A program made the position numbers and the translations under genes. Below, one piece after another: positions 1 through 16,374 of a stretch of 64,000 nucleotides of DNA. The notes beneath the pieces are model-generated. The model was given only the letters and a program-made list of their open reading frames with translations, was not told where the DNA came from and did no database searches. The first letter of the stretch is position 1. Every line of letters starts with the position of its first letter. Source of the DNA: an uncultured Nitrososphaeraceae archaeon (GTDB lineage: Archaea; Thermoproteota; Nitrososphaeria; Nitrososphaerales; Nitrososphaeraceae); NCBI GenBank assembly GCA_963729045.1, contig CAVSMN010000012.1:64001-128000 (forward strand), given 5' to 3'.

Positions 1-362
1 TATTTGTATCTAATTATTAAGAAATGGTATTCAAATTTTAAAGGAGACTACTATAATAAATGGCACCAATTCCTGGATTTACTTCTATGTATAAGAATAT
101 TGACTGTAATTGTTATTTATATTAGTAACTGAGTCATAATGACTGTCAGAATCCTATACCTGGTTATATCTTAACTTCTGATGGCAGTCTTTGACTGTCT
201 TTTAATGATCAAACTAAAAAATATGATTCATATCTTAATAAATTATATTGATTAGTCCATAAATTAAATATGTCAAAGTATAATGATATTTCAATAATCT
301 TAGCCATGATAATTTTTCTAAATCTCAGATAGAATGATATTCTGATTCAGATGGAATCAATC

Positions 363-950
363 CTAACTTAGCTTCTGAGTTTGTCTGACAAATTCATCCT
401 TAACTGTAGGCCATTCTTCTCTAATAATACTATAGCAAGCAGTATCTCTTATCCTCCCGTTTCGCATTATTTTGTGATTTCGCAAAATTCCATCCTGCTT
501 TCCTCCTATTCTTTCAATTGCTTTTCTTGATACTTGATTTAAGACATCAGTTCTAATCTCTACTGCTATGCAGTTTAGCTTTTCAAATGCGTATTGTAAC
601 ATCAAAAGTTTGGCCTCAGTATTTACAGGAGACCTGCGATAAGATTTTGCTATCCAGGTGTGGCCTATCTCTAGCCTATAATTTTGGTGATCAATATTAA
701 AAAATCTAGTTGTCCCAACTATGATTTTCAATTGCTTGTCTACTATAATGAAAGGTAAACTAGTATTATCATGTTTTATCATATTCTGCAAATAAATGGA
801 CATTTCTTCAATGCTCGGGAATGATGTGAATGGGTTTTTCCAGATTTCGCCGTCAGCAGCTGCGCTACATAAACCATTCAAATCATCAGATATGGGCGGA
901 CGAAGTACTACGTGACTGTGCTCCATAGTTATATCATGGACGTCTAGCAT
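363..950 (-). CDS. GNAT family N-acetyltransferase (RimJ/RimL-like)
   Basis: 195-aa ORF with motifs IVGTTRF, RLEIGHTW, VNTEAKLLMLQYAFE, SRKAIERIG and GRIRDT typical of this family. Confidence 0.9.
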   Translation of the reverse strand: MLDVHDITMEHSHVVLRPPISDDLNGLCSAAADGEIWKNPFTSFPSIEEMSIYLQNMIKHDNTSLPFIIVDKQLKIIVGTTRFFNIDHQNYRLEIGHTWIAKSYRRSPVNTEAKLLMLQYAFEKLNCIAVEIRTDVLNQVSRKAIERIGGKQDGILRNHKIMRNGRIRDTACYSIIREEWPTVKDEFVRQTQKLS

Positions 951-1765
951 ATACCTAACAAGATCAATAATTCATCCTTGCTTTATTAAATACAGTGCTA
1001 TTTCATATGATGATTAATTTTGTCGATCTGTAAACTCTATGGGTTTCACAATCAAATTCAACGATCTATTTTTTAAAATGGCATTATAAATAGACTATCA
1101 ACTAGAATATCAGTCTGTGGGTGGTCTGTTAGGCTGAATTTTGTCAGACAATGGATCTCATAGTACTTAAAAAACACCATTATTATAGCATTTTTATGAT
1201 TTTTAATAATATTGGGATAAAAAGATGTAAATTATGCTGATTATTATATCCTTTTTAGAAATATTTATACAATGATAATATTCCAAATATCTAAAAAGAT
1301 ACTTGAGACGTACGAGGTTTGTTTTGTGCCGTTCATCCATATACGCGAAGGGAGGTGAACTAATGTTATATAAGCAGATACTTATCATGTACACATATAT
1401 AAATGGATAATTCATTATGTTTTGGTATGCCATAGTGTCGCTTTTATATATCCGTAGAACAAATTGACTGGTGATTCTATACTTGGAATATATTCATAAC
1501 TACTTAAAAGTAAACTTTTGCTCTGACTAACGTGCTTTGATTATATACACTTGTGCTTGATATACAATATTAATTATCCATATCGGGTCAAAATAACATA
1601 GTATCATTGTTTTCTTTCAATCAGATAGTCTCTAGACAGCAATGATGAATGTCACGCTTTAGTTTTAGGACAGATTCGAGGATGCAATATTCCGCTTCAA
1701 TCTGTTGATCTTAAGAATTTTCGACGAGCCTCGGTAAGAACTGGAATTAATTATTGTGATTGGAG

Positions 1766-1790
1766 AATATTTCATAGAAACAGTATTATA
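1766..1790 (+). repeat. 25-bp direct repeat, left copy (putative att site) AATATTTCATAGAAACAGTATTATA
   Basis: Exact match to 9546-9570; flanks differ on both sides. Confidence 0.85.
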
Positions 1791-2166
1791 AAAAGGATAA
1801 GATGTATATAAACTTCTAAATATCTAGGATACACATTTTTTCTTTAACCTTAGATGAATAGTTCGTGATTATTACCTTTTCAATATGACCGTGAAATTTT
1901 TATACAAATCTCTTCAACTGCTTTTTGAGAAACATCCATCTTTGGGGTTCTTTTATCATAATAAAGTAAGTTAGTGATATGATTTATAATAACAATACCC
2001 TTTTAAATACATAAATTTACATAGAATCGTATTTGTCTATTAAATCATAAAAATTTGACGAGTTAGATATAATTTCCTTAAAACTTTTGTATATTTGTTT
2101 AGCATAATAGTCTAGTAATATCTAGTTGAAAACCCGTTTTATATATAAAATGATATTAGAATTCTA

Positions 2167-2731
2167 ATGATTAAGTTTACTATCATGATGGCCATCCTTT
2201 TGGCATCAGTAAGCCTCTATGGCGCAAACGTGGGATCAATATATGCCCAGAACAACGCCTTGAGTCAAAGTGGAAATTCAGAAGCAGAACAGACAATTGA
2301 ACAGTCACAAGCATCCGAACAAGATTCACAATGTGTATCAGGCGACATTACCGCTCTTATCATGTAACAATCTTGGTTTCCAAGTGCAAAGAAATGGTGA
2401 TGATGACGGCATGGAGGAGAAACCACCGGTACCACCAGGTGATAGATGTCCAGATGACTACGTATGGGACATAACAATACGCGGGACAGCAGATCGAGGT
2501 GGTGTTCCAGTTGGAACTGTAATATGTCTGACCCAAGGACTTGGCAATCATCTAGCAACCGTAGTTGAACCGAACGAACAACCGTACCAAACTAATGTAA
2601 ATACAAACCAGCCAGATGTAGCCAATTGTAATGCTCCAGGACAGCAGCGTGCTGAAGTAACATCAGGAGATCCTCCTACTCCACTAGAGATGGGTGACCC
2701 AGTCTGTGCAACTGTGTCCTCTCCCGCCTGA
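2167..2731 (+). CDS. Secreted Gln/Asn/Ser-rich, 6-Cys protein (one +1 frameshift near 2358)
   Basis: ORF 2167 (signal peptide, then QNNALSQSGNSEAEQTIEQSQASEQDSQCVSGDITAL) joins ORF 2270 (SCNNLGFQ...) if one base is removed; TATA-like TTTATATATAAAA at ~2138-2149; T-tract follows the stop. Confidence 0.7.
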
Positions 2732-2764
2732 GGATTAATTAGAATAAATTAATCAAAAAATCAA

Positions 2765-2779
2765 TTTTTCTTTTTTTTT
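2765..2779 (+). terminator. Oligo-T archaeal terminator
   Basis: TTTTTCTTTTTTTTT about 35 bp after the stop at 2731. Confidence 0.5.
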
Positions 2780-3360
2780 AATATTAACCAGCAAGCAATT
2801 TCTATCAGTCATTTCCAATTTTAGTCATGTTGAGTCAAGATAAGTCAAAATTATCTTAGATAATATCTGATAAACTCTAGATTTTCATGGAGATAGGGCG
2901 GCCAAGATGCTGATCGACTCAGAATCTTCCATGTCTTTTCTTTTTCTTTTTGTCTTGTTTTGCAGAATCAAAAACTGATAGGTAGGATCAAGAAGTACCC
3001 TGGGAAGATTTCTAAAACTAATATTGATTTATTATACTTCATCGAGTGAGCATATCGGAAACAGTTCCAGTTCCATTAATATTGTTGCGGCCGCATCTCT
3101 CAAACTCAACTTCAATATTTCTAATTTGTGAATATGTAGATCCTCAAAAGTGATAGTTGAGATGTGCCGTCGCCAAATTATTCATAAAATCGTTCGAATA
3201 TTTTTGATATTCTTAATCCCCAAAATCTTGTCATTAATCTCTTCAAATATAGGTTGAATTTGCAAATGAATCTTGAAAATATTACACGTTATTCATAAAG
3301 TTAAAGTTAAAGTATAACATACTAATGGAACTTAAATAGTAGAAAGTTCTATGGAAATTA

Positions 3361-3607
3361 ATGAATTCACAAACATTCGCAATCGGGATGATTGCAATAA
3401 CGGCTTTTATGCTGGTAGTAAGTAGTTTCGTTTCATCAGAGGCCATGGCTGTTAAGAACGGCGAAGGCGTAACCACAGAATCATGCGTACACAATGGAAA
3501 TGGAGACAGTTCTGATGGAGGCATGCGAAGGCAAAGGTAAGAGCTCACAGACAATAGAAGAGACAGTTTATAAGTGTAAAGGAAAATTCCAGAGCGATCC
3601 CTGTTAA
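3361..3607 (+). CDS. Small secreted 4-Cys protein (~81 aa; one +1 frameshift near 3520); not in ORF track
   Basis: MNSQTFAIGMIAITAFMLVVSSFVSSEAMA signal, then VKNGEGVTTESCVHNGNGDSSDG / ACEGKGKSSQTIEETVYKCKGKFQSDPC*; T-tract after the stop. Confidence 0.65.
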
Positions 3608-4202
3608 TATAAATTAGACCCACAATTTTTTTTTATCAAAAATGATAACAATCCTATAAATTGGATAATTGATTGATGTTTTATATTACCAACTAGAATC
3701 CTAAAAACCATTCTAAGGTAAGAAAGACCTGGAGGTAGATAACCGTCCTTTGAGATACTATAATGAGAAGGCAGGTAAATAATTTCTAATAATATAAAAA
3801 GTATTCTATAGTGGATAATATGTATATAAAATTTTCAGGATGAGTCTCCCTCGCTTATCCTTTGCATTTTAGCCGTCGCCAAACTTTTCACAACAGTATT
3901 CAAATGCCAATTTGTTGATTTTTAAATCGGATAGGTGAAAATATTTGATCACTACTCTTTAAGAAGATGATTTCATACATATTATACAGTTGATAGGTTT
4001 CATATTGTTTTTGTGTATAAATGGATGTCATTATCAATAGCATACCTTTCAAATACAGGACTCTAGATGTCTGGGCGGCCGCTTCAAAGAGTCTAGGCAT
4101 CTCAAGTTGTTTTCGGGATACGAATATATTTGATAAAACGGGAGAAATAGGCACAAATATTGATTTCGGTCTATATAGGCTGATTTAAACGAACTGAAGA
4201 AG

Positions 4203-5290
4203 ATGGCAGCATCAAGGAAAAATAATACTATAAAGCATGGAGGGGTTTTAAAGACACAAATCATACCCAAACCGATAGAAGCTTTTCAAACCCCAGAAGA
4301 CATGGTAACAGACCTATTAAAACAGAACTCTAACGGAATTCTTAACAAAAGAATACAAGAGTTTTGTGGAATACATTGCGAAAGAAAATCTATCTAACCA
4401 TTATCCTACCTCTAAAGATATTAAACTCCACTTTAAACTTGGAAAAGACTATACTAAACATGTAATTGCTGAACTTAGGAGGTATGCCTACCTAGATTCA
4501 CATAGCGAAAAAGAAGCGAAGACTCGACCAACTAATTTTATCTAATCTTTTGGTCGATTCATCAAAAGGATCCACAAAAAATATCGTTTCGCCAGAACAA
4601 ATGGCTTTTCAATTGCAAATAATAAAGGATTTCATTGAGGAAGGTAATTACTTACTCCATAACATTAGGCTTGACACAGAACTTAAAGACCGAAAATATT
4701 ATCATAACTTTCAATGGCCGATTAGAAGTATGAAGAATAGAGCAAAAGTCAAAGAAATGAACATCTCGCCCGCCGTTCATGCATTTATGTCGATAAATCC
4801 TACTGGGACTGTAAACATAATACTAGCCTGTTCAAGAAATCCTTTTGATTTGACGACGCCTGAAGGAGTCACCAATTTTCAAGCAGCATGCGGAGAAGTA
4901 CATTCAATATTGAAAGCTGATTTATGTATGAATGAACCATTGATAAGCGCACCGTCCGACTGGGAACTCTCACACTGTGATATTTCAGTTGATATTCCAA
5001 TAAAGTTACTACAAAAGGAGATTAATGGCTCAATAAAAACCGATGGAGCCAGCCAAGTTCACTGGAATTTTGGAGGAGGGATGCAACTAAAGCATTTATC
5101 TTATATATACCAATTTTATGACAAAACTACATTTAACGGTAATGTATTTCGATTAGAAGAAAAGATATCTTTTTCTCCTTCCAATAGATTAAAGCTTAAG
5201 AGAACTTGAAAAGAAATTCGTTTCGAAGGGTATCCAGGATGAGATAGAATCGACTCGGAATTAAAGACCTCGAGGAGGAAACGTGAATGT
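4203..5290 (+). CDS. Putative N-terminal wHTH plus Rep_trans-like replication initiator/relaxase (frameshifted; both ends uncertain)
   Basis: ORFs 4203 and 4550 join through +1 shifts near 4363 and 4513 via YPTSKDIKLHFKLGKDYTKHVIAELRRYAYL (HTH-like); C-terminal half has WELSHCDISVD, YQFYDK and FRLEEK, echoing Rep_trans RxDxAxD, RIYxK and RxE. Confidence 0.5.
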
Positions 5291-5378
5291 AAAATTCCTG
5301 CGTGGCCAACAGACTCCTGATGTGAAATACACAACAGATGTTAGACCTTTATCCAATAAAGTTAAATGATTCAACGAC

Positions 5379-5712
5379 AGGAAACGCTCGACTTTCATAA
5401 GCGATGGCGCCCCCAACTTTCACATAACCTACAAAAAAGAATTTCAAACTCATACATTGCCAAGAACAAGACATATCCGATACATACTAGTGACAGGCTG
5501 ACCACAACAAAATGGAAAGAATGGAAAAATTAGAGACAGGGAAAAAACCATGCGAGGGTTAAAGAAACCTGACACACCGATACTCAAAGGGTTAAGAATT
5601 TATCATAACTTCATTAGGGGTCATGAAGCCTTAGGAAAACGCCTGCTTAAAACTGCGGTATAAGGATAGAAGGACAGAACAAATGTAAGACTTTAAGTTG
5701 AGAATGCTTCAA
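5379..5712 (+). pseudogene. Degraded C-terminal fragment of a DDE transposase (IS6/IS240-like archaeal type)
   Basis: Translates in shifting frames as TFISDGAPNFH...HNKMER..GKIRDREKTMRGLKKPDTPILKGLRIYHNFIRGHEALGK.TPA*NCGIRIEGQNK; has in-frame stops and deletions; N-terminus absent. Confidence 0.75.
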
Positions 5713-6496
5713 ACGAAAATATTCATTAAAATTTGATATGGTTCACTCCGAAAATTAGAACGAAAGCAAGAAGAATACTGATTGAGGCGATAGAAAAAAG
5801 CAAGAATTTCTGACCCCATTTAATTCCATTTGCTTTTTCCAAGTTTTTATCATCAATATCTTTTAAACTTAACAAATACATATCTATCATTCTTTTGGCG
5901 AAATTGTCTTTTGAAGCATTAATGAAGTTATCAACAACATTTTTTACAATAGTAGATTGACCGGGTTGGAAGAAAACACCATGAGTAAGCGGATATTGAT
6001 GATATGCTTGATCGTCTGGGAGTACAAGATATAGAGGAAAATTAGTTAAATACTACTATAAAGTGATGAATCTTATATTCCTTATAGTATGAGAAAAGAT
6101 TATCTCAAATCATTCCAATGGTAAAGTAGATTCTATCATACAGGGACTTTATGAATCAAAGGACCGAGACCATAAGATGGTTTATAATGGTATTTTATAC
6201 CAATTCAAGGTTTTGGATAAGTATGTATAGGACAAACGGGGGAAAATTTCTTATAGGATCGCCACACGGAACAACAGAAAAGCTGCAAGAACAAACACTC
6301 CTAATAGTTATCATCAAAAAATCAAAACTATGGAAAAATATGAATATGAATAATTGGTACGCATATTCAACCACGATAAAGAGATTATATAAGTATTCTA
6401 TAATATTCAATAAATGTCAATCATTTCTATTAATACGCAATAAAACGACCCATCAATGGTAAAAGCGTAAATATTAGGAGAATGTATCCGGGTTAA

Positions 6497-7737
6497 ATGT
6501 TAGAAAACGTTTTCAATCAAAATTCTTTTAAAGTTAGACTAAAAAATCTATTCCCTAATAGAGAAGGTAATACGCTCTTTCTGACCAAAATGGTACTAGG
6601 AGCAGTCCTATTGTCTGGACTAATAAGCATTTCATCGTACGCTTCTTTCGCAAATGCAACTACGAATGCAACTACAATTGACACGAACAAGATAATCACT
6701 GGTGACACAGAGGAATATAGGATATTTGAAGGTCAGGAACCTACGCTTCAACCATCAGATGTGGGCATTGCAAACCAATCCAATGCCAGGTACCTTTGAG
6801 TGGTGGTACTTTCAGGGAAAATTAGATGATAATTCAACAACCCAAATTACATTACTTGTAAAGCCTTGGGTTGACAACAATGGGCCGCTTCAGCCCTACG
6901 CCACTATAGCCATTACAACTCCTAATGGTACGCATTTAGGGGGAGAGACGAAGGTAGATGCTACCCAATTCAGGGCTGCACACAATACATTAAACGTAAC
7001 GATGGGTGATATCTGGGCTCGTGGTGATTTGAACACCGTTAATTTGCACTTTCCACCGACGGAGAATGGAGTTGGGGCTGACCTAGTTTTTAAAAGTGCC
7101 GCTCCAGCCACAAATTTTGGCAGTGGTATATGGTATTTCGACCAATCGCTGACACGATTCAGCGCTACGAATAATCCAATGCCCTTTGCTAAAGTTCAGG
7201 GTAACTTGACCTACGGCGGCGAGTCTCACCCAGTAAATGGAACAGGGTATATAGACAAGCAGTGGGGGACAGTCAACTGGAACCAGGACTATGACGGCTG
7301 GTACTGGTCAACTGGTCATTATGGAAACTACACTATAGACCTGTTTGAACTGACCACTTCAGCGCCATTTAACCATCAGAAAACCGTGGATGCCTATTTG
7401 GCCAAAGGAAATGGGCCAAGTGAGGTCTTAGTCGAAACTATGCAGGGCGTTACTGCACACACATCAGGGAAAAACTTTACTTCTCCTTCAGGGGTACATA
7501 CATACCCAGAAGTACTAACATTACAATGGAAGAACGGCTCAAATTCAGCAACTCTGACTCTTACTAATCCTACAATCATTGCACACCCACCCACCATTGT
7601 TAATACTAATGCAACCATATACGGAACCCCTGAATATATGCGGATAGCAGGGTAAAGGTACACTTAATGTGCAGTGGAATGGGACCAACGAAACAGCAAG
7701 CGCCCCTGCAATCTGGGAGGTCAGTTATCTGCACTAA
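6497..7737 (+). CDS. Secreted CrtC/AttH-like (hydroxyneurosporene synthase/tocopherol cyclase-like lipocalin fold) protein; two +1 frameshifts near 6763 and 7651
   Basis: Hydrophobic N-terminal signal; EWWYFQG, GTGYIDKQWG and GWYW motifs; after removing the extra G bases it ends GKGTLNVQWNGTNETASAPAIWEVSYLH*. Confidence 0.7.
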
Positions 7738-8219
7738 GAACCTATCCTATCCTATTCCAAAATTATCTTTCTATAGATTTTATACAACAAGCGAAGAGAT
7801 CTGTACCTACCCAGGATAGTATGACTGGAGTGTTCTCAATCGTTCAAGCCTGTTGATATGCTTTCAAGCAATAACGGTATTTGCTCCGATAAAATTTATG
7901 GATGACCGAATTACTGAACCACATTTAACTAAATATGGTCTAGTTACAAATTTGCTACTCGACTCGGAAGATGTGTAACAACCAACCACAAAATAATGTA
8001 ATGAGTTGTTAGAAAGATAGCTACTATACTCATATTTCACTATAGTTCCTAGTGTCGAATATGATAGGATTGTGAAATGCGCCAACTAAGGTTTATATCC
8101 CATAGCATTTGCTCAAATAATAATTAAAAATAGATCTCTACGTCACCTTTTAAGAGGCCGTGATGGTATTTATCATTATGAAATAGTATTTGATCCTAGT
8201 AGAATTTCCACCTAATTGG

Positions 8220-9499
8220 CTATTCATCCATACCCCAAAGCATTCTGAAAGTTTTCTGCTGCTCAGGTTCAAGTAACTTTAAGAATTTCTCTCTATCATG
8301 TTGTGCTCGTTCAAATTTTGCATCAAGATTCTCGAGTCTATTAGCTAGTCTCTCAAACATGGTGTTATATCGTGAAAGTTTACTAGTCAAGCGAAATTCG
8401 TTACTAATAGTTAGATTGTCAATGGCCTTCAAATACTCTTGTAGAATCTCTGCCATCTGAAGGCTTGTAATATGCTGAGTCTAATCCTACACTATGACCG
8501 ACTAACATTTCCCTAATTGTTTTATCGATTTTTGACCTTTGCATGTTTGTGATAGCAAAGATTCTAAAGGAATGACATGGATGTAACTCATTCTTATGGG
8601 AGGCTCTGTAAACAGAAGAATTTTCAGTAAGAATCCATTCCTTTCTTAGATTCAATTTCTTGAGCTTTTTTACAATGTAAACGCACGGAGCCCCACTGCT
8701 GACATAGGCTCCTTGTGTAACTCACTATTTGAAGGCAATATTGGATTCATCTATATCAAATAATTTTGTAAAGAGATAAGTACTCATCAGGTCCCCAGTT
8801 TCCTGTATTCAAATCCTGAACTAAGGATTTATCAACTTTTTTTCTATAAGAGAGATAATTGTCAATGGCTTTAGCACATTCAGGGGTACAAAATGTAAAG
8901 TAACTATCTTTTCTTGATGTCGCATAGACTTGAATTCTATACACATACTTTCCATCCTCCAAATCATATCTCTGTGAGGTGCCTCAGTTTTATCGAAGGA
9001 AGCGCCCCCACTCTCATCCCTGTTGAAGCCATCAACAACACAATTGCTTTTCCTCTCTCATCACACAACGAAGCAAAGATGAAATTTCATCATGAGTATA
9101 AGATTGATATTCATACTTGTTCTCCTGCTCTCCAAGGAAATTTGAAAGCTTTTTTCTATTGAAATTATGTCATTGATGTGAAAAAAAGTGATACAGGGCG
9201 GCCAAATGGACAGAAACTGTGGAATAGGATGACCCCGCATTTTTCATTTCAATTAATTGTTGGGTTATCTCCGATTCAATGACCTTGGGATTCTTTTCCA
9301 GAATTTCGTCCAGTGATTCTAGTGACTTATTAATGGGAAGCCGCAGATATTTCTGTAAACAGCCTTCATACTTTATCTGGGTATGTTTGGACCTTAGGGC
9401 GGAAATGAAGAGAGAATATGCTGGATGAGTTTTATAATTGGCTAAAAGCGGATTGATTGAGGCTGTCGAAACTGTTGAATTATCTAAACTTGTTGTCAA
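8220..9499 (-). CDS. Tyrosine recombinase/integrase, split by several frameshifts (errors or decay)
   Basis: Fragments give a core-binding N-terminus (YSTVSVHLAALYHFF), IVLLMASTGMRVGAL (catalytic R), HSFRIF (HxxR), EMLVGH and DSAYY (catalytic Y), plus a C-terminal coiled coil. Confidence 0.85.
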
Positions 9500-9545
9500 A
9501 GTCTGTTCTCCTTTTGAAAAGACGAGTCAGTTATTATATAGACGA

Positions 9546-9570
9546 AATATTTCATAGAAACAGTATTATA
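9546..9570 (+). repeat. 25-bp direct repeat, right copy (putative att site)
   Basis: Identical to 1766-1790; lies between the divergent integrase and NUDIX starts. Confidence 0.85.
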
Positions 9571-9609
9571 TTTATTACTTTACAATCTACGTAATTAGGA
9601 TAGAGAAGA

Positions 9610-10036
9610 GTGACGATAGAGCTATCAGTGGGTGCAATAATAAGATATCAATCTATTGAATTCAATAGAGAATCATTCTGAATTTCTCCTTTTGAGAAAT
9701 AAACGTGGATTTTGGGGATTTCCCCAAGGCCATAAAGAAAGAGGGGAAAATGAAATTCAGACATTGCAGAGAGAGGTGCAGGAAGAAACTGGAATAGTTG
9801 ATCTAGATATACACCAATACATAGGCAAGATTCAATACAAATACTTTAGAGCTGATGGAATTCGATCAGAGAAGGAAGTGAAATTTTATTTTGCAACTAC
9901 TCCAGTTAGAGAAGTCACTATATCAAATGAGCACGAAGGATTCAAATGGACAACTTATCAAGATGCGCTTTCGCTTCTCGACCACCGTCAACTGAAATCA
10001 ATAATCCTAAAAGGTAGAAGAAGAGGCCTTTATTAA
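9610..10036 (+). CDS. NUDIX hydrolase, Ap4A hydrolase-like (+1 frameshift near 9655)
   Basis: Nudix box GHKERGENEIQTLQREVQEETG; upstream frame GTG-TIELSVGAIIRY supplies the usual N-terminus. Confidence 0.85.
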
Positions 10037-10139
10037 TACACATATTTCGAAAGTTACTGTCCTACTCCGCATACTCTAAATGCTATGAAAATAATTTTAT
10101 ACCTACGTTTTATTAATAGAAGCGGATATAGATTAAAAA

Positions 10140-11714
10140 ATGGTTGCTGGTAAAAGAATTGTGCTAACTGCCGATCGTAGTTTGATGACCAACTATAGAG
10201 GTAATTTTCTTTATGGGTTCATAGCATGTGGCCCATATGAACTTGTTCCTGAATTTGTATTTGATAAACTTTTTTGTCCAAGTGTTGAAACTGATAAGAA
10301 TACTGGAGAAATAAAAGTTGCCCAATGTGGTCTGCGTCGTATTGAAAGTGCATTGATTCGAGAGTACGATAAAAGCGAAGTATTTCTAGCTCATCCAGAA
10401 ATGTTGGAAAAATGTATTGGACCACAAACCAAGGTTGTAGGAATAAATGTCATGGATCCGTTGGGAATGGCTCCGGTAACAACCACCATGTCACCTGAAA
10501 AATTATCTTATGTGGCAATGAAATTTAAAAAAATGTGTGCTTCTATCATTCAATTAAAAAAGAAATATGATTTTAAAGTCGTCGTTGGGGGTAATGGCTC
10601 TTGGGAATTAGCCAAACCTGAAAGGATGAAGATTCACGGAATTGATACCGTGGTGATAGGTGAAGCAGATGAGTTAGCATTGGATTTGTTTCATGATCTA
10701 GAAGCTGGGGATGCACCAGAACTTCTTCATACGTTTGTACGCAATATAGAGAATATTCCTGTTATACGTGGTCCAACAATCAACTCATTAATTGAAGCCA
10801 TGAGAGGTTGCGGACGGGGTTGTGATTTTTGTGATGTGAATAAGAGATCTAAGAAAGATATTCCTTTAGATAGATTACAGGAAGAAGCTAAAATAAATAT
10901 AAAATATGGCTTTGATTCCATCTGGCTACAGTCAGATGAAATGTTACTTTATGGCTGTGATAATAAAGACTTTATACCAAATCAGGAAGCAATTTTAGAC
11001 GTTTGGAAGGGGCTAAAGTCGGTAGGAGCTAACTTCATAGGTACTACTCACATGACTTTGTCAGCTGTTGCTTCATCTCCTGATTTGATAAAAAATATTT
11101 CTCAGGTAAATGATATGGAAAACAATGGTCGCTGGCTTGCGACTAACTTAGGAGTTGAAACTGTCGCCCCGCGGATGGTAAAAAAACACCTTGGGGTAAA
11201 AACGAGGCCTTTCCAACCAGAGGAATGGGGATCAGTTGTAAGAGAGGGATGCAAAATACTAAATCAAAATCATTGGTTTCCAGCATTAACATTGATAATT
11301 GGATGGCCTGATGAAACACCTGATGAGACCCAATATACTATTGATTTGATCCAGGATTTCAGACAAATGAATATGAGGGGATTAGTCGCTCCATTATTAT
11401 ATCAGGATTTCTCTGAGAAAAATTCAATGCATTTTGGAAATTTGAATGAATCACAATTTGCGCTCTTTTGGACATGTTGGCAACATAATCTTAGGGTAAT
11501 AAGTGACATTATACCTATAATTATTCGTAACAAATCTTACGGGCCTGCGATGAAGGTATTTATGGCAATGTTAATAAAATTTGGAACCTGGGCCATAATG
11601 AGATATTTACGTGGCCTGTCCAAAGGCTTGTTTGAAGGTAAACCTGCTGAAGATATTGTTGCAAAGTATGTGCGACCGCGTTCTGTGACCGCACCAATGC
11701 CTCCAAAATTATAA
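10140..11714 (+). CDS. B12-binding radical SAM protein, GDGT ring synthase (GrsA/GrsB)-like
   Basis: RGCGRGCDFC (CxxxCxxC) after a cobalamin-binding-like domain; N-terminal IVLTADRSLMTNY and GLRRIESAL resemble the Grs family as recalled (radical SAM call is secure, Grs call is tentative). Confidence 0.7.
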   Translation: MVAGKRIVLTADRSLMTNYRGNFLYGFIACGPYELVPEFVFDKLFCPSVETDKNTGEIKVAQCGLRRIESALIREYDKSEVFLAHPEMLEKCIGPQTKVVGINVMDPLGMAPVTTTMSPEKLSYVAMKFKKMCASIIQLKKKYDFKVVVGGNGSWELAKPERMKIHGIDTVVIGEADELALDLFHDLEAGDAPELLHTFVRNIENIPVIRGPTINSLIEAMRGCGRGCDFCDVNKRSKKDIPLDRLQEEAKINIKYGFDSIWLQSDEMLLYGCDNKDFIPNQEAILDVWKGLKSVGANFIGTTHMTLSAVASSPDLIKNISQVNDMENNGRWLATNLGVETVAPRMVKKHLGVKTRPFQPEEWGSVVREGCKILNQNHWFPALTLIIGWPDETPDETQYTIDLIQDFRQMNMRGLVAPLLYQDFSEKNSMHFGNLNESQFALFWTCWQHNLRVISDIIPIIIRNKSYGPAMKVFMAMLIKFGTWAIMRYLRGLSKGLFEGKPAEDIVAKYVRPRSVTAPMPPKL

Positions 11715-11826
11715 AAAAGTAAGAGTTTATTTTAAAACTCTATTTTATGTCTGGTTTATATTCTAGGTTTGAACGAAAAAATAGGAATAGGTATTCCTAA
11801 AATTAGACCGTGGAGAGGTAAAAAAT

Positions 11827-12162
11827 CTAGTGTGTTGAGCTAATCTGGCTCAATGCTGCATCAGCAATGGTGTCCCTCTTAGGTGTAATGACAATAAAAT
11901 AATTCTTATCAGCTCTTTCCATGACATTGACTAGTTTGTGTTTTTTTGCTGAGATATCGAATTCGTACATTCCATGCTCAAGATTCCCCTTTGTATAAAT
12001 CATGAGTAATGTTTCCCCTGATAACGGGGTAATTGGGACCATTGAAAAAACATATCCCTTGTAAGAACTAATGGGTAGGATTTGTTTCATATAGGGTGCC
12101 ACTGAAACCAAATAAATCAAAACATCTTCGATGGTTTCGAATTCTTCAAATTCAAATTTCAT
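11827..12162 (-). CDS. Hypothetical protein
   Basis: 111-aa ATG ORF co-oriented downstream of FNR with protein-like composition. Confidence 0.7.
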   Translation of the reverse strand: MKFEFEEFETIEDVLIYLVSVAPYMKQILPISSYKGYVFSMVPITPLSGETLLMIYTKGNLEHGMYEFDISAKKHKLVNVMERADKNYFIVITPKRDTIADAALSQISSTH

Positions 12163-12210
12163 TTAAATTAACTATTTGAAAGTAGGTTAAATAAACTTTA
12201 TAAAAAAAGT

Positions 12211-13055
12211 TTATCCGTACGATTCAAATTTAACGTCAAAAGTACCATCTTTTCTCTTGTTCCTTTCAGTTACAAAACCCTTTGGTACTAGAGAATCTAG
12301 AACCCCATCTACGGTGCCCTGCCATCCACACACATAAAAAGACGTATTTTGCGGTGTAATTTTCTCACCCACTAGTTCCTCCAAGGGTGATTTATCCTTG
12401 CCTGGCTTTGGACGTAGAAAGGTTTCTACTCTCCCCTTATGTCCATTCCATGATCTATTGAACCATTCCTGGGGTCTGCTGATACTTGCTCGATATCTAA
12501 AGTTCCATTCACTACCACCCTTCTCCAAACTTTCAGCCTCCAGCTCGGTTAACAATTCTCTATAACTCAATTCATCGACATAGCTTGCGCCGTGAAGCAC
12601 TACGATTTGTCTTTTAGTCCCCTTTGATTTTAGGTGTAACGAATATGATATAAAGGGGGCTAAACCTGTTCCACCTCCAATCAAGTACTAATCTCCTATT
12701 ATCTGGACTACCATCAGGCATTTTTTCATTAATTGTAAAAATACCAGTGGGCCTCACCCAATTAATTTCGTCTCCTTCCCTCTTATCAAATAATTGAGTT
12801 GTAAGCCTTCCGGGCAGTGGTTTCTTAACCCATCGTACCTACAAGCTCAAAGTGTTTTTTTTGTTCTGGAGGTGAAGCAATCGAATATGCTCTCCTTATT
12901 ACCTTACCTTCATTAGGAACATTTAAACCCAAGGTAACAAACTGACCCGGTTTAAAGTCTGGGACTTGGCCCTCGTTTGGTTTAACATGAAAAATCGCAA
13001 GGTCTTCTTTTAGAACCCTGATATATGAAACTGTTGCCTTATTGTCTACTACCAT
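12211..13055 (-). CDS. Ferredoxin--NADP(+) reductase (two +1 frameshifts near 12840 and 12682)
   Basis: FKPGQF, RRAYSIAS, GGGTGLAPF, YVCG and C-terminal FESYG motifs; the gap translates as VRWVKKPLPGRLTTQLF. Confidence 0.85.
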
Positions 13056-13539
13056 AATATTCTCTGTTTTAAGCCAAGTTAGTTAAATATTTTGTTCTTA
13101 TTATTTTTAAAGTAACATTTACTTTCATTTTTGTATCAGGGATTACGATACTCAGAATGATTTTGCAAGGCAACTCATGAATTAATCTGAATTTTATAAG
13201 GTCATGAGGATTAGAAACTACGCATAGTATATATAAAAGTCGGTTTAGTTAAACTTTTTGATTATATTATAGTAAGGGGACCCCTTGTGTCTTTCAATAC
13301 ATTTTTGACAAATTGATTTATCGCCGTATTTTTTATGACAGGGGCAATCGCAATTCAAATTCATATTGGATCCCAAATAATACTCTATGAGAATTTGATG
13401 AAACATATAAATCGTTTTATACAGTCTTTACGAAAATACAGAAATTAAAAATGATGGAAGACCCACAGTCACTACCGGTTTCTAATTTTCTTAAGGTCAA
13501 GTTTTATGCACAAATGATATCAATGTTAGAATTTACTCG

Positions 13540-14217
13540 ATGATCTACTCGATTTTTTTGTTAAAAAGCAGATCAGAATTACTATATAGTATAAGGTACT
13601 GTCTGAATATGACTGAAAGTTTGACTGAATCGATGCATTCGTTTATTTCTAAATCTGTTATCTCTTCTACAACCTGTAAAAAATATCTGGCTTCTGATGG
13701 TATTTCATCTAATAATTTGTTGTTGAAGGATCAAACAGGAAAAGTATTGCTTAATTGCAAGAATGTTAATGTTTTAAAAGGTAAAATAGACGGGATAGGT
13801 GTTTCTTTTGCTATAACTAAAAATCTAGATGAGTATCAGTTTCTTATATGTAAATACATTCCCGCCTTACCTGATCACGATATGTTCAAGTTAAAATTTC
13901 AAAAGATGCGGTTGCTTATTACTATGTTTATAAATAAAATGGTCGATGTGTTACTTCAATCTAAAATAAACTCCAAAGCCTTGGCTGACTTGAATAAACA
14001 CGGCAATGCTATATTGTTAGAGGTTTCTGAATTAACGCATGAATTTCGTGAAAGAGACAAAGATGACAGAGTCAAATACCTTCTAAATGAGGAAAATATG
14101 GATATGCTAAATCTCAAAATGGATTATTTTATCCAATTTGGTGCTACTGAAATCCAAATTAATAGGATCCTGTTGTCCATTTATGGATATGATATAGCTG
14201 ATTCAGCAATTGAATGA
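13540..14217 (+). CDS. Hypothetical protein
   Basis: 225-aa ORF; real start may be the later Met near 13609. Confidence 0.6.
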   Translation: MIYSIFLLKSRSELLYSIRYCLNMTESLTESMHSFISKSVISSTTCKKYLASDGISSNNLLLKDQTGKVLLNCKNVNVLKGKIDGIGVSFAITKNLDEYQFLICKYIPALPDHDMFKLKFQKMRLLITMFINKMVDVLLQSKINSKALADLNKHGNAILLEVSELTHEFRERDKDDRVKYLLNEENMDMLNLKMDYFIQFGATEIQINRILLSIYGYDIADSAIE

Positions 14218-14222
14218 AGGTG

Positions 14223-14768
14223 TCATCCATCTTTAAAGAATTCAAGCACTTCTTTGCTGTGACCCCTTGGTTTGACACTTGAATATATTTTAGCAATGCT
14301 TCCAGTTTGATCAACTAAAAATGTTGACCTCGTAACGCCAAGGTATTCCTTACCCATAAATTTTTTGAGCCCATAGACCCCATATTCCTTTGAAATTTCA
14401 TTGTTCGGATCGGATGCAAGCATATAGGGGATATTCATCTTCTCTCTGAATTTTGTATGAGAATCGTTAGAATCCGGGCTGATTCCAATTATTTCGATCC
14501 CCTGTTGTTCAAATAGAGCATAGTCTTTAGTAAATTCCTCAGCCTCGGTGGTACAACCAGGAGTAAAATCTTTTGGATAAAAGTAAATAACTATCTTTTT
14601 GTGTTTTAACAGGTTTGACAATTTGAATTCATTGTTCTTTGGGTCTCTGTATTCAAAATCGAAAGGCTTGTCGCCCTCTTTAATTTTCATCATATTATGA
14701 TCTTTTTGGTTTGACATACTGTTAATTGTTAGGACACCAAAAAATACATGTTTGTTTTCATGCTCCAA
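14223..14768 (-). CDS. bcp: Peroxiredoxin, BCP/PrxQ type
   Basis: YFYPKDFTPGCTTEA, GISPD and RSTFLVD motifs; true start is probably downstream of 14768. Confidence 0.9.
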   Translation of the reverse strand: MEHENKHVFFGVLTINSMSNQKDHNMMKIKEGDKPFDFEYRDPKNNEFKLSNLLKHKKIVIYFYPKDFTPGCTTEAEEFTKDYALFEQQGIEIIGISPDSNDSHTKFREKMNIPYMLASDPNNEISKEYGVYGLKKFMGKEYLGVTRSTFLVDQTGSIAKIYSSVKPRGHSKEVLEFFKDG

Positions 14769-14815
14769 TCCTGCTCATCATATATCTTAATTTAATGTCT
14801 GCCATTGTTCAAGTA

Positions 14816-15880
14816 TTAACCAAATACAAACGTGTAAAAATAGAAATTATCTGTCTTTGGTAATATTTCAAGCACATGAATTTCAGGACTTGGCGTTTTG
14901 ACTATGTTCATAATATGTGGCCATGTGATTTCGATATAACTCGAATTACTATCCTTTTTTCCATGATATCCTAATTGTTCATCAGTTAAAAATTCACCAT
15001 CCAGCTTAACATTTGCTATTGCAGGCTCGTCGTCGGTACTACCAACTATTACGTTTACATTTGATGCCATATTGTATTTGAAGACTATTGCGGGATCTTT
15101 TTCCTTATGGTCAAATGATGCCTTTATGCCCTCTTTATCCCATCTCCATTTTCCCCTTAAATATACGGTATTATCCAACACGGTTTGAGGCGCAGTGAAC
15201 ACATTGTATTCATTAATTTTGGCTTTTTGATTATTTCCAAACCTTCTGATCCGTGAGTAACCTACGCAGATCTCAGGGGCCATGCCGTTAAAATGCATTC
15301 CGTATATCTTAGTCACCTCATTTTGGTTGCTGTTGATCTCTTGTTCCTTTTCTTTTTGGTTGTTTAAATCAGTACTTAATTCTGATTTACCATCTTGCTT
15401 TTCTTGAGGCGATTCTCTATTGGAGAATGGGAGATCAAGCAAATCGGCTAAAGCTTCTTCAAAATCATCAAATGTTCCGTATCCCGGATGTTCGTACCTA
15501 ACAAACCCATCAGTATCAATCAATATGTGCTTGGGCCAGTATGAATTCCCATATACTTCCCAAGTTTTATTATTGGTATCATATCCCGTCACATCTCCAT
15601 CCAATCCAAACTCCTTTAATGCCTTTTCGATATTAGCGATATTTTTGGCAAATTCATATTCGGCTGAATGAATCCCAAATACAACCAAACCTTTATCGGC
15701 ATATTTCTCTTTAATCTTTTTTATTGTAGGAATGGTTCTTAAGCAAAAAATGCATGTATATGTCCAAAAATCTAAAAGCACTACCTTACCCTTTAGTTCC
15801 TTTATACTATGCGTGGCGTTGTCGCTCCAATTCTTGATATCTTTGAAATCTGGTGCTGATACGGCAGGTATAATGTTCAT
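14816..15880 (-). CDS. Thioredoxin-like redoxin with DipZ-type C-terminal domain
   Basis: LLDFWTYTCIFC (CxxC), GIHSAEYEF, YGNSYWP and FYTFVFG end. Confidence 0.85.
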   Translation of the reverse strand: MNIIPAVSAPDFKDIKNWSDNATHSIKELKGKVVLLDFWTYTCIFCLRTIPTIKKIKEKYADKGLVVFGIHSAEYEFAKNIANIEKALKEFGLDGDVTGYDTNNKTWEVYGNSYWPKHILIDTDGFVRYEHPGYGTFDDFEEALADLLDLPFSNRESPQEKQDGKSELSTDLNNQKEKEQEINSNQNEVTKIYGMHFNGMAPEICVGYSRIRRFGNNQKAKINEYNVFTAPQTVLDNTVYLRGKWRWDKEGIKASFDHKEKDPAIVFKYNMASNVNVIVGSTDDEPAIANVKLDGEFLTDEQLGYHGKKDSNSSYIEITWPHIMNIVKTPSPEIHVLEILPKTDNFYFYTFVFG

Positions 15881-15955
15881 TTAATGACTATTTTCATCAT
15901 GTAATTTATGTCTGTTTTCTGTAGTATTCTATTTATTTGAAAATGTCAAATCAGA

Positions 15956-16040
15956 TGCGGGAGATGGGATTTGAACCCACGAACCCCTAAGGGATAAGGC
16001 CCTCAACCTTACGCCTTTGGCCAAGCTGGGCGACTCCCGC
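15956..16040 (-). tRNA. tRNA-Leu (anticodon GAG), intronless, no encoded CCA
   Basis: Reverse complement GCGGGAGTCGCCCAGCTTGGCCAAAGGCGTAAGGTTGAGGGCCTTATCCCTTAGGGGTTCGTGGGTTCAAATCCCATCTCCCGCA folds to a cloverleaf with long variable arm and TTCAAAT T-loop. Confidence 0.95.
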
Positions 16041-16137
16041 TTTGACATTTTATTATTGGAGGGATAATTTGAATATTCCCACTAATATCATAATGGCATT
16101 TGAATGATTTTTATTATGGAGTTCATTTTTTTATAGC

Positions 16138-16374
16138 ATGCTTGTTCCAGTAAGATGCTTTACATGTGGAAAACTGATAGCTAATATCTATAATGAATAT
16201 TTAACCCAGTTAAAACAAGGAGAAGAACCAAATAAAATTATGGATTCTTTGAAAATTACACGTTATTGTTGTAGAAGGATGTTCGTTTCAAGCGTAGAGA
16301 CCATATATCAGGTCATTCCCTATTATGAAGCTTTGAGGAAACGACGGGCGGAGATTCAATCTGAGATGGAATGA
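16138..16374 (+). CDS. rpoN: DNA-directed RNA polymerase subunit N (Rpo10)
   Basis: MLVPVRCFTCGK and RYCCRRM signature. Confidence 0.97.
   Translation: MLVPVRCFTCGKLIANIYNEYLTQLKQGEEPNKIMDSLKITRYCCRRMFVSSVETIYQVIPYYEALRKRRAEIQSEME

Follow-up and report, generated by a model that had tools for sequence, protein, structure and literature searches.

Positions 1766-9570 of the window, by which we mean the whole 64,000-nucleotide stretch of DNA analysed here, very probably constitute a 7.8-kb cryptic integrated, integrative plasmid-like element of a soil ammonia-oxidising archaeon. The genome carries archaeal amoA, in line with the ammonia-oxidising host proposed in a preliminary description of this DNA. 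That account also called the element the best candidate for an undescribed system: this stands for the family and its putative replicase, which have no description in the main texts of the papers compared below, and falls for the kind of element, since small integrase-plus-wHTH elements of Thaumarchaeota are already described (PMC6563490). Entry into the chromosome would have occurred by site-specific recombination through a tyrosine recombinase, with crossover within a core of ~15-18 bp (CATAGAAACAGTATT[ATA]) that precedes a NUDIX gene by 40 nt. The element and its flanks hold these features:

363-950, minus strand: GNAT acetyltransferase gene of the left host flank (Pfam Acetyltransf_3, E 1.5e-17)
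1131-1610, no strand: dispersed repeat in the left flank, outside the element, with copies also in congeners
1766-1790, plus strand: attL, left copy of the 25-bp repeat, with the 15-nt core CATAGAAACAGTATT at 1773-1787
1791-1835, plus strand: P' arm beside attL, inside the element, homologous to its counterpart in congener G020 and to an internal copy at 3809-3835
2167-2731, plus strand: gene for a small secreted-type protein, as ORFs 2167-2367 and 2270-2731 split by a +1 shift
2888-3218, no strand: gene relic, 73% identical to C11:89477-89815 and repeated elsewhere in the genome and genus
3361-3540, plus strand: 59-aa ORF with a signal-peptide-like N-terminus and no Pfam match
3791-3835, plus strand: internal degenerate att-like site, a core with 3 mismatches in 15 followed by the P' arm
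4203-5218, plus strand: Rep-like gene, N-terminal wHTH and C-terminal TBP/Rep_trans-like domain, in three frames as assembled
5292-5695, plus strand: transposase relic, from the 3' part of a gene of the SWIM-finger/DDE type
6482-7734, plus strand: secreted hydrolase-type cargo gene with CrtC N-terminal lipocalin and AsqO_C domains (Pfam PF07143, PF25581)
7751-7820, no strand: 66-70-bp piece of a multicopy repeat, with 80-91% matches in many congeners
8220-9499, minus strand: tyrosine integrase gene, 46 bp from the right repeat and broken by 8 small indels in the assembly
9500-9545, no strand: P arm on the element side of attR, upstream of the integrase start, conserved beside attR in G020 and G004
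9546-9570, plus strand: attR, right copy of the 25-bp repeat, with the core at 9553-9567
9611-10036, plus strand: NUDIX hydrolase gene of the right host flank (Pfam NUDIX, E 4.4e-17)

The perfect 25-bp direct repeat reported earlier (AATATTTCATAGAAACAGTATTATA) is present as two identical copies, the only two in the genome: allowing at most 3 mismatches, we found 2 matches in the window compared to 0.00 expected (100 shuffles), and allowing at most 2 mismatches, the entire assembly (2,847,185 bp) gave 2, with 0 for the reversed control. We then ran the empty-site comparison suggested in the preliminary description and observed a single core copy without insert on five congener contigs, which supports its reading as a small integrated plasmid or integrative element. 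Four of these (G022:C98, G013:C395, G014:C375 and G002:C169) have the single core between the same GNAT gene and NUDIX flank, ~550 bp apart; the GNAT gene also neighbours the empty site in G022, G013 and G014. The fifth contig (G008:C259) carries left-flank sequence as in G014 and stops before the GNAT gene. The core of the congeners' empty sites lies 40 nt upstream of the NUDIX gene, and the window's NUDIX GTG start likewise lies 40 nt from the repeat, with the 141-aa orthologues in G020 and G004 beginning at a homologous GTG. Duplication of the core at both ends thus restores the sequence preceding the NUDIX gene. On the host side of attL, 1745-1765 shares homology with the sequence left of the core at the congeners' empty sites, and 1745-1811 matches locus L027 of G020 at 80.6%. 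No tRNA lies at the att site, the sole tRNA or Rfam match in positions 1-17000 being a tRNA-Leu at 15956-16040. As a separate matter, the idea that the repeat is a chance or generic motif in ordinary chromosome is refuted: we found nothing in its favour, and the shuffles gave 0 matches in 100, the 25-mer is confined to the element's two ends genome-wide, and empty sites exist in relatives.

The same site is occupied in other congeners. In G020 the cores are 8,712 bp apart and enclose a fully open 8.7-kb element in which both the integrase (424 aa) and the Rep-like gene (361 aa) are open, G004 has perfect 15-bp cores spaced 26,282 bp, and G048 has an open 437-aa integrase, then the core, then the NUDIX gene. 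Integrase pieces also lie within ~150 bp of the NUDIX flank in G019, G016, G005 and G023, such that a related integrase occupies the NUDIX site in 8 of the 34 genus genomes searched, the window's genome included (at least 7 other congeners). We saw neither a close relative that keeps the internal genes yet lacks the repeat nor reads of this strain in which the two repeats are detached from the assembled flanks. In both G020 and G004, the core is preceded on its left by 7 nt of host type at attL and of element type at attR, so that the crossover can be placed inside the 15-nt core. At attL of the window, these 7 nt are the element-type AATATTT where relatives have the host-type AAAAATC, which is unexpected under a simple single integration and counts against our best explanation. 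Homology between 3791-3835 and the G020 attL begins exactly at the core and extends rightwards, with none left of the core, and this internal site is a possible junction of two tandem elements. We give even odds to the leftmost 2 kb (1791-3790) being what survives of another element, accreted in tandem at this site; PMC6563490 describes tandem arrays at a single site. The preliminary description had missed this internal site, as well as the split frames considered below and the location of the att site outside a tRNA.

The integrase was said to abut the right copy of the repeat, and its reading frames indeed run on the minus strand from 9499 to ~8220. The window's gene is 89% identical in nucleotides to the open 424-aa G020 gene, and the motifs R, HxxR and H...Y are readable in its pieces. 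An intact orthologue matches Pfam PF00589 at E 2.6e-6, barely over the cut-off (27.8 vs 27.1 bits), and the PHROG 1 integrase at 4.7e-10. Loci with the same integrase belong to Nitrososphaeraceae MAGs and one Candidatus Nitrosocosmicus sp. The gene lies wholly inside the element and is thus unsplit by integration. Archaeal tyrosine integrases of the pNOB8 type are non-splitting, as opposed to those of the SSV type. The window's integrase resembles the pNOB8 type in layout, with the att core outside the integrase ORF and the gene whole after integration.

Clustering of ORFs from 15 loci gave two families present in more than 4 loci, the integrase (15) and the Rep-like protein (14), and no others. 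The family's sole common backbone is the integrase plus a wHTH/TBP-like-fold protein of 320-410 aa, the rest being variable cargo. The element family is common in the genus, probably Nitrosocosmicus, with Rep-like matches in 17 of 34 genus genomes, and a profile search of 1.84 billion representatives returned 449 Rep-like proteins at E<=1e-3, of which 70 reach E<=1e-30. Among 8 profile matches looked up, three are named 'hypothetical protein', two 'DNA repair protein RadA', and the rest are unnamed. Among the most similar described systems are the cryptic integrated elements of Thaumarchaeota surveyed by Krupovic et al. (2019, PMC6563490), which share with the window element a tyrosine integrase, short direct-repeat att sites, small size and a lack of viral or conjugation hallmark genes. 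Intergenic targets account for 15 of the 68 elements in that survey, and the smallest, NitUzo-E2 (2.6 kb), holds an integrase, a wHTH protein and two unknowns. As described there, such elements have no signature gene beyond the integrase, whereas the window's family has a second conserved protein of wHTH plus TBP fold; the word 'Nitrosocosmicus' is absent from the survey's main text.

The wHTH/Rep-like gene named earlier was recovered at 4203-5218 on the plus strand. Residues 1-56, 48-106 and 102-340 of the intact 361-aa G020 protein align by tblastn to its three frames, which are separated by two +1 shifts near 4350 and 4515. When the C-domain model (pLDDT 87.5, pTM 0.81) was compared structurally, VIA-align matched it to TBP (Z 7.1 over 141 aligned residues, rmsd 4.4) and to 4cwc_A, the rolling-circle initiator RepDE (Z 5.6 over 145 aligned residues, 15% identity), with Z values in a range that the tool terms common. 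Foldseek returned TBP (E 5.6e-5) and the Rep_trans chains 4cij_B (3.0e-4) and 4cwe_A (2.5e-3). Clusters with Phage_CRI made up 25 of the 30 feature hits in the ESM Atlas (best score 0.94), whose structure rows include a Rep_trans cluster (TM 0.51). The C-domain thus structurally resembles both Rep_trans (PF02486: RepD/RepDE of pT181-family plasmids; 4cwc_A, 4cij_B and the Atlas rows) and Phage_CRI (PF05144: filamentous-phage gene II protein), whose hosts are bacterial whereas that of the Rep-like protein is archaeal. Residue spacing is similar, D166-D262-Y307-E320 being 96/45/13 apart compared to 96/49/23 for D46-D142-Y191-E214 of RepDE (numbering from PMC13107129), although motif III of Rep_trans is YxxK (PMC13107129) and that of the Rep-like protein YxK. 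Rep-Arvir (DUF7845, PF25227; e.g. RepSNJ2) likewise combines TBP-like-fold and wHTH domains, sits beside a tyrosine integrase in small integrating archaeal elements, and has an absolutely conserved Tyr with conserved acidic residues either side; RepSNJ2, a proven archaeal initiator, shows the same search pattern, TBP first and Rep_trans second (PMC13107129). The domain order of the Rep-like protein is however the reverse, wHTH first, and the motif at the Tyr is Q-x-Y-x-K rather than the KHYYM of RepSNJ2 (PMC13107129). The PF25227 model matched none of 5 genomes that hold the Rep-like family at E<=1 and did match the control genome, Haloferax volcanii; 'Nitroso' and 'Thaumarch' are absent from the main text of PMC13107129.

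On balance these structural models favour, with moderate confidence, a rolling-circle initiator of the Rep_trans/Phage_CRI/Rep-Arvir structural superfamily, in which case the excised circle would replicate by rolling circle. It is less likely, though a serious alternative, that the protein is a DNA-binding regulator (an element repressor or promoter-binding factor) and the element an integrative island depending on host replication or a helper element. Both structure searches rank TBP over RepDE, the winged helix of the N-terminal domain is MarR/Fur-like (Z 9-10), the C-terminal domain matches no Pfam family, and none of 31 Rep-like members matched Rep_trans, Phage_CRI, DUF7845 or TBP at sequence level (E<=10). 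We also found no conserved origin-like hairpin near the Rep-like gene in five loci, and PMC6563490 warns that the wHTH proteins encoded by small elements of Thaumarchaeota may have a regulatory role. A regulator would nevertheless sit poorly with residues H153, D166, Y167, K182, D262, Y307, R318 and E320, invariant across thirteen full-length members at a mean column identity of 25-35%, which resemble an active site and not a DNA saddle. Rolling-circle initiators (RepDE, RepSTK1, Phage_CRI) come up in three independent searches, weak PHROG matches of the N-terminal part are replication initiators (E 4.5e-5 to 5e-3), and conservation across 14 loci as the sole protein beyond the integrase is the usual position of a replicase. 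Pleolipoviruses and inoviruses use Rep-Arvir and Phage_CRI initiators (PMC13107129), and the window and G020 elements each encode three exported-type proteins, as might the provirus of a pleomorphic or filamentous virus that lacks a capsid, these proteins then being the membrane or spike proteins of the virion. We regard this as very improbable: the two elements' exported proteins share no homology, no cargo family occurs in more than 4 of 15 loci and no window cargo ORF falls in a shared family, one cargo gene encodes a secreted hydrolase of cellular type that has many homologues outside such elements, and 13 scanned proteins gave 0 PHROG structural families. The integrase has no IMG/VR relative with the query used, and the Rep-like protein none in the phage collection.

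As assembled, the integrase, Rep-like, 2167-2731 and 6482-7734 genes are each split over two or more frames, by 8, 2, 1 and 2 frameshifting indels, respectively. We think it likely that consensus errors of the assembly, rather than decay, broke the frames of the integrase, Rep-like and hydrolase genes and that the element is intact or nearly so, because the same kind of 1-nt insertion splits enolase and further genes of the host. Of 23 long host ORFs in the window, 4 are frame-split (enolase, twice; GHMP kinase; a geranylgeranyl-reductase-like oxidoreductase; an FNR-like gene), through eight 1-nt insertions in non-homopolymer contexts. That the element is instead a dead relic, its integrase, Rep-like and cargo genes true pseudogenes and its excision and replication lost, appears unlikely but draws on several observations. 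The element's indels amount to ~3 per kb vs ~0.35 per kb in host genes, and those of the integrase (8 per 1.28 kb) to ~18 times the host coding density (~8 per 22 kb), so uniform assembly error is insufficient as an explanation; either local read support is poor or some breaks are real. A truly decayed transposase fragment lies inside the element, and the same-site integrases of G004, G016, G005 and G019 have in-frame stops or are truncated, which indicates that decay in place is common for the family. Among contigs of four public runs, none joins 1790 to 9571 and none carries a circular junction, and these contigs thus give no direct sign of excision for the window copy. Against decay, the integrase differs from that of G020 by 6 insertions and 2 deletions with no in-register stop, and its 420 aligned codons hold 89 synonymous and 50 non-synonymous differences and no nonsense substitution. 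Conserved residues show no excess of change in the window lineage, with 5 polarised changes compared to 6 in G020, and both 25-bp repeats remain perfect. Every shift in the Rep-like, hydrolase and 2167 genes is +1, and nearly all breaks are +1 insertions outside homopolymers, a signature shared with enolase and GHMP kinase. Neither G020 and G004 nor the contigs of runs X1 and X2 have the extra base that frameshifts the NUDIX gene at 9671, and contigs of three public runs lack the one at 7649 in the hydrolase gene.

The three signal-peptide proteins of the preliminary description correspond to the ORFs at 2167, 3361 and 6497, whose N-termini, judged by eye, lead from a basic residue through a hydrophobic segment to an ending that resembles A-x-A. 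Cargo is predicted from sequence to be mostly exported-type in both the window copy and the intact G020 relative; 'all-secreted cargo' omits the relics (the transposase fragment and the 2888-3218 repeat). By Pfam and PHROGs we found no capsid, packaging or conjugation families among the ORFs of the window or of the intact relative, in line with the earlier statement that no capsid or conjugation genes are visible in the element. The 2167-2731 gene has no Pfam match, a GC of 0.43 compared to ~0.30-0.35 nearby, and paralogues of its N-terminal part on eight other contigs of the genome. The hydrolase gene (GC 0.44-0.47) spans three frames with +1 shifts near 6768 and 7650, and a full-length 417-aa homologue, P0155, aligns at 99% identity in frames 2, 3 and 1. 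The transposase relic is real and certainly decayed: 58% identical to residues 216-353 of a 365-aa congener transposase ORF (G002), it is single-copy in the genome, is truncated at its 5' end and is interrupted by three in-frame stops and one frameshift. The 2888-3218 relic has several copies in G004, and its C11 copy overlaps two ORFs; congener matches of the 7751-7820 repeat often lie ~50-130 bp from contig ends, and the flanking 1131-1610 repeat has copies at 75-82% identity on C11, C19, C12 and C13 of the same genome.

The interval 1766-9570 is a genuine element inserted by site-specific integration, and its kind is already known. Its bounding copies of a 25-mer, AATATTTCATAGAAACAGTATTATA, lie at 1766-1790 (attL) and 9546-9570 (attR) with zero mismatches between them, and at up to three mismatches this sequence matches twice in the window and never in 100 shuffles. 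It is not the generic genome-wide motif that the preliminary description had named as a way for its reading to fail, as at up to two mismatches the whole 2.85-Mb, 22-contig assembly holds two matches. No tRNA or Rfam family was found at either copy. The transposase fragment among the features of the interval is truly dead.

Features of the integrated element (window positions)
2167-2731: small gene with a signal-peptide-like start (ORF reading)
3361-3540: 59-aa ORF with a signal-peptide-like start (ORF reading)
3791-3835: internal core (3 mismatches in 15) with arm
4203-5218 (+): Rep-like gene
5292-5695: transposase fragment with three in-frame stops and a 5' truncation
6482-7734: secreted-hydrolase-type gene (Pfam CrtC lipocalin and AsqO_C)
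9499 down to ~8220 (-): tyrosine-integrase gene, start 46 bp from the right repeat

We searched both element flanks in 40 relatives and fetched and aligned the loci. A GNAT acetyltransferase gene lies to the left of the element and a NUDIX gene, followed by a radical-SAM gene, to the right. The empty site predicted in the preliminary description exists in relatives' contigs as a single core with no insert: in G022:C98, G013:C395 and G014:C375 the GNAT gene to NUDIX flank interval spans ~550 bp and holds one core, G002:C169 has the same arrangement, and G008:C259, which carries left-flank sequence as in G014 and stops short of the GNAT gene, was counted as an empty-site contig. The core is thus repeated at both ends of the element and present once at the relatives' empty sites, the pattern of site-specific integration. 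All sites share CATAGAAACAGTATT, with ATA next to it on the right-hand host side, and this sequence lies 40 nt upstream of the NUDIX GTG start, which was set by homology with 141-aa orthologues. Because the core is duplicated, the sequence ahead of the NUDIX gene is unchanged by insertion; an A+T-rich, TATA-like run crosses the right edge of the core, which may therefore overlap a putative NUDIX promoter.

The same site is occupied in other relatives. In G020, cores 8,712 bp apart enclose an open 424-aa integrase gene, an open 361-aa Rep-like gene, an AbrB/MazE-like gene and genes for three exported-type proteins, two of them PsbP-like, and this genome matches the window at 89% nucleotide identity across 7936-12500. 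In G004 (C25:494885-521191; loci L028/L029), 26,282 bp separate two perfect 15-bp cores, and the integrase gene beside attR is broken; the 26.3-kb insert encodes proteins of 1448, 929 and 561 aa, those scanned against Pfam giving no match, and is a different, larger tenant of the att site. The order in G048 is an open 437-aa integrase gene, a one-mismatch core and the NUDIX gene, and G019, G016, G005 and G023 each have pieces of an integrase no more than ~150 bp from the NUDIX flank. Counting the window's own genome, an integrase at the NUDIX site was found in 8 of 34 genomes searched within the genus. G002 contributes both an empty-site contig (C169, locus L019) and a contig with the core preceded by an element-type arm (C74, locus L007), each ending at or near the core, which suggests that occupancy is polymorphic in its sample.

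The junctions of G020 and G004 place strand exchange inside the 15-nt core: immediately left of it, attL carries a host-type 7-nt sequence and attR an element-type one. The window departs from this pattern: its attL carries the element-type AATATTT at 1766-1772, as at 9546-9552, whereas G020, G004 and all empty sites have the host-type (A/C)AAAATC or CTAAATC, and the repeat is consequently 25 bp long instead of 15-18 bp. This AATATTT is not accounted for by one canonical integration. A heterologous overlap region, gene conversion and tandem integration were weighed as its origin, and none fits cleanly.

A second irregularity lies within the element, where the arm at 3791-3835 resembles the G020 attL arm (44 nt) more than the window's own attL arm does. 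Homology here starts exactly at the core, and the sequence to its left is unrelated to either flank; apart from the two small exported-type genes, the 2 kb from attL to 3791 contain just the relic of a gene that has further copies elsewhere. The simplest reading, to which we give an even chance, is that this left 2 kb is a second element, now devoid of an integrase, that accreted in tandem. As a separate observation, many congeners carry copies, 80-91% identical, of the 66-70-bp sequence at 7751-7820; these often lie ~50-130 bp from the end of a contig, a placement like that of the end of a multicopy insertion sequence, and the sequence had no match in the loci that hold an intact transposase.

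The integrase assignment was tested with the intact G020 orthologue standing in for the window gene, to which it is 89% identical in nucleotides. This protein scored 27.8 bits against PF00589 (cut-off 27.1, E 2.6e-6) and also matched the PHROG 1 integrase (4.7e-10), while the four separate pieces of the window integrase gave no Pfam match at E<=0.01. The window frames nevertheless read the motifs TGMRVGAL, HSFRIFAIT and LVGHSVGLDSAYYKP, all present in G020, which we take to hold the catalytic R ... HxxR ... H/W ... Y residues. A search of IMG/VR with the single integrase protein returned no relative.

We considered whether the frame breaks reflect decay of the element or errors of assembly. 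Relative to the open G020 gene, the window integrase has two 1-nt deletions and six insertions, of which five add 1 nt and one adds 2 nt, and as assembled the Rep-like and hydrolase genes each fall into three frames and the gene at 2167 into two. Integrase codons differ from those of G020 at 89 synonymous and 50 non-synonymous positions with no in-register stop; where six outgroups conserve a residue, changes number 5 in the window lineage and 6 in G020. The shifts are nearly all +1 insertions outside homopolymers. Host genes are broken in the same way: of 23 long ORFs in the syntenic region of G004, four have window counterparts spread over two or three frames, and eight 1-nt insertions cause these splits, in genes for enolase (twice), GHMP kinase, a geranylgeranyl-reductase (GGR)-like oxidoreductase and an FNR-like protein. 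Relative to G004, single-base insertions in conserved host genes, again outside homopolymers, lie at 9671, 12686, 12840, 16548, 17141, 19872, 22089 and 27383; the genes hit are NUDIX, FNR-like, enolase (twice), GHMP kinase, an additional one at 22089 and the GGR-like oxidoreductase. They look like assembly consensus errors, and such errors may also lower the 87% completeness estimate of the assembly. The extra base at 9671 (NUDIX) is absent from contigs of public runs X1 and X2, that at 7649 (hydrolase gene) is absent from contigs of X1, X2 and X5, and a 99%-identical 417-aa hydrolase was found elsewhere.

Together, the lack of an in-register stop, the +1 signature outside homopolymers, the similarly broken host genes and the public contigs free of the extra bases argue against decay. 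Across the integrase, indels number 8 per 1.28 kb, ~18 times the density of host coding sequence, so uniform error is insufficient: read support must have been thin or mixed at this place, or some of the breaks are real. We regard it as quite probable that the frame breaks are mostly assembly error.

The element belongs to an undescribed, genus-wide family. When the ORFs of 15 loci carrying the integrase gene, the Rep-like gene or both were clustered, the only families spanning more than four loci were the integrase, in all 15, and the Rep-like protein, in 14; no cargo family was common to more than 4 of the 15, and no window cargo ORF fell into a shared family. In most loci the two genes lie on the same strand, 2-4 kb apart with a few small ORFs between them, and in the window and G020 they are convergent. 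Cargo varies by locus, and the window and G020 have in common only the left arm, the Rep-like gene (~40% amino-acid identity between the proteins) and the integrase end. A second integrase and Rep-like locus lies elsewhere in the window's genome (G000:C14:115100-119070; ~7135-11207 of locus L103), with a homologue of the G004 element's 396-aa protein between the two genes. With 3 TAG and 3 TAA stops within the match to its Rep-like gene, this copy looks truly decayed.

Pfam scans of 20 window ORFs and 12 relatives' ORFs, and PHROG scans of 13, bore out the earlier statement that no capsid or conjugation genes are visible: no capsid, packaging or conjugation family was matched, and the only matches were integrase, wHTH/replication-initiator-like, AbrB/MazE-like, PsbP-like and CrtC-like. 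PHROG structural families were likewise unmatched when a pleolipovirus- or inovirus-like provirus was considered, in a test of low sensitivity for small membrane proteins. The family thus falls into the cryptic integrated element class of a 2019 thaumarchaeal survey (PMC6563490), marked by an integrase and no capsid, packaging or conjugation hallmark gene, and the elements described there resemble this family in their short att repeats, intergenic targets and tandem arrays. The survey includes a 2.6-kb element bearing only an integrase and a wHTH protein, and by its account most small integrating elements of ammonia-oxidising archaea carry no recognisable replication protein (PMC6563490). The earlier proposal of an undescribed system accordingly stands for the family, according to our literature search, but not for the kind of element. 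Searches on Nitrosocosmicus integrases and on Nitrososphaer rolling-circle or integrated elements found no description of the family, and Nitrosocosmicus papers, in the sections cited, touch on integrases and islands only in passing (PMC6657660, PMC13245735).

The Rep-like protein has matches in 17 of 34 genus genomes, frequently with more than one copy per genome, and an exhaustive search with a profile of 13 full-length members retrieved 449 proteins at E<=1e-3 among 1.84 billion representatives. A word-index search with the G020 protein returned one match only, a 90% cluster with a 361-aa member that is a hypothetical protein of Candidatus Nitrosocosmicus arcticus. Eight of the 449 were looked up, and the five that carry a name are three entries called 'hypothetical protein' and two called 'DNA repair protein RadA'. 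In 3 of 18 Pfam-scanned members (P0030, P0143 and P0127; E to 9e-67) the Rep-like region is fused to a Rad51/RadA-type ATPase, which could be a real replicase-ATPase fusion or gene-call read-through beside radA. Tblastn against plasmid and phage collections gave no match to the Rep-like protein, and among sequences of solved structures a profile search found wHTH matches alone, all weak (best E 0.0056).

Structural modelling resolved two domains. In the full-length model (pLDDT 73.8), residues ~30-117 form a winged helix similar to MarR/Fur-type regulators (Z 9-10), and the N-terminal part weakly matches DnaD_N and phage replication-initiator PHROGs. The C-domain (~143-352), modelled alone from 31 sequences (pLDDT 87.5, pTM 0.81), forms a two-repeat sheet-and-helix domain with TBP as its top structural match (Z 7.1, 141 aligned, rmsd 4.4; Foldseek E 5.6e-5, probability 1.0) and Rep_trans rolling-circle initiators second (RepDE, 4cwc_A, Z 5.6, 145 aligned; 4cij_B, E 3e-4; 4cwe_A, E 2.5e-3). 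The model thus has the TBP-like pseudo-dimeric fold of the Rep_trans/Rep-Arvir superfamily. In the ESM Atlas, 25 of 30 feature matches to the C-domain were Phage_CRI clusters (best score 0.94), and the structure matches included Phage_CRI, Rep_trans and TBP clusters. None of the 31 C-domains matched any Pfam family at E<=10, PF25227 and the TATA-binding protein family (PF00352) included, and on the predicted structure the likeness to TBP is one of fold only. Residues D166, D262, Y307 and E320, possible counterparts of the catalytic Tyr and three metal-binding acidic residues of the superfamily, are invariant among the 13 members, and their spacing of 96/45/13 resembles that of D46, D142, Y191 and E214 in RepDE, 96/49/23 (PMC13107129).

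Rep-Arvir (DUF7845), reported in 2026, combines a TBP-fold endonuclease with a wHTH and is encoded by archaeal viruses and plasmids that integrate; mutations proved what its conserved Tyr and acidic residues do (PMC13107129). Its structure-search pattern is the same as that of the C-domain, and both domains are present here; however, the order is reversed, as Rep-Arvir has an N-terminal TBP-fold catalytic domain and then a central wHTH (PMC13107129), whereas the wHTH at ~30-117 precedes the TBP-like domain at ~143-352 in the Rep-like protein. The PF25227 model matched none of five genomes carrying the Rep-like gene at E<=1, with control matches in Haloferax volcanii, and scans of five loci for short inverted repeats or a hairpin origin near the gene found nothing conserved. 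Due to the PF25227 and Pfam nulls, the reversed order and the lack of a conserved hairpin, we file the protein in neither Rep_trans nor Rep-Arvir. The conserved second gene most likely represents a new relative of TBP-fold rolling-circle initiators, with its domains permuted, and on balance we favour the prediction that its product works like a Rep_trans/Rep-Arvir initiator.

More tentatively, and with somewhat less than an even chance in our estimation, these elements may be active plasmids of ammonia-oxidising soil archaea that integrate and replicate by rolling circle, with an initiator that forms a third, domain-permuted branch of Rep_trans/Rep-Arvir and a live hotspot upstream of the NUDIX gene, which different family members would enter and leave. 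The open 8.7-kb G020 copy would then be a ready-made replicon with an integrase/att cassette. If the replicase reading is right, a replication protein would be supplied for a whole genus-wide family of small integrating elements, the family would be tied to a replicase superfamily recognised in archaea only in 2026, and that superfamily would extend to Nitrososphaeria with a new domain order. We know of no genetic system for ammonia-oxidising archaea. Haloarchaeal shuttle vectors were built by the SNJ2 authors from such parts, namely an att site, an integrase and a small replicon (PMC13107129).

Parts of the window occur in 22 of the 23 public runs listed, at most 0.31 of its words in any one, and related contigs are present in four soil, rhizosphere or sediment runs. 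Three of these contigs bridge attR with the integrase attached, and several bins inside the element are uncovered in some runs. No contig in the four runs joins the flanks across the element or carries a circular junction; the contigs come from related strains and say nothing firm on excision. One contig, L070, with a core and arm-like sequence on both sides, was considered as an excised circle and rejected, as it has no terminal overlap, a fragmented integrase and no Rep-like gene that we could find. In three of the four soil or rhizosphere runs, depth over the hydrolase gene (6673-7923) is 30-130 against ~1-20 for the flanks. This gene has a GC content of 44-47%, compared with ~30-36% around it, and is present in only 2 of 34 genus genomes; its main carriers are probably other organisms or elements. 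The mostly exported-type cargo and a hydrolase depth several times that of the flanks suggest that soil strains acquire surface or extracellular functions from one another through these elements.

The window's genome holds archaeal amoA, and records with the same integrase at this site are titled as Nitrososphaeraceae MAGs and, in one case, as Candidatus Nitrosocosmicus sp. Just left of attL, at 1131-1610, lies a dispersed repeat of ~480 bp in which no long ORF was found; copies at 75-82% identity occur at C11:66693-67135, C19:34432-34739 and C12:362520-362677, on C13 and in several congeners, and the repeat may be a MITE-like element.
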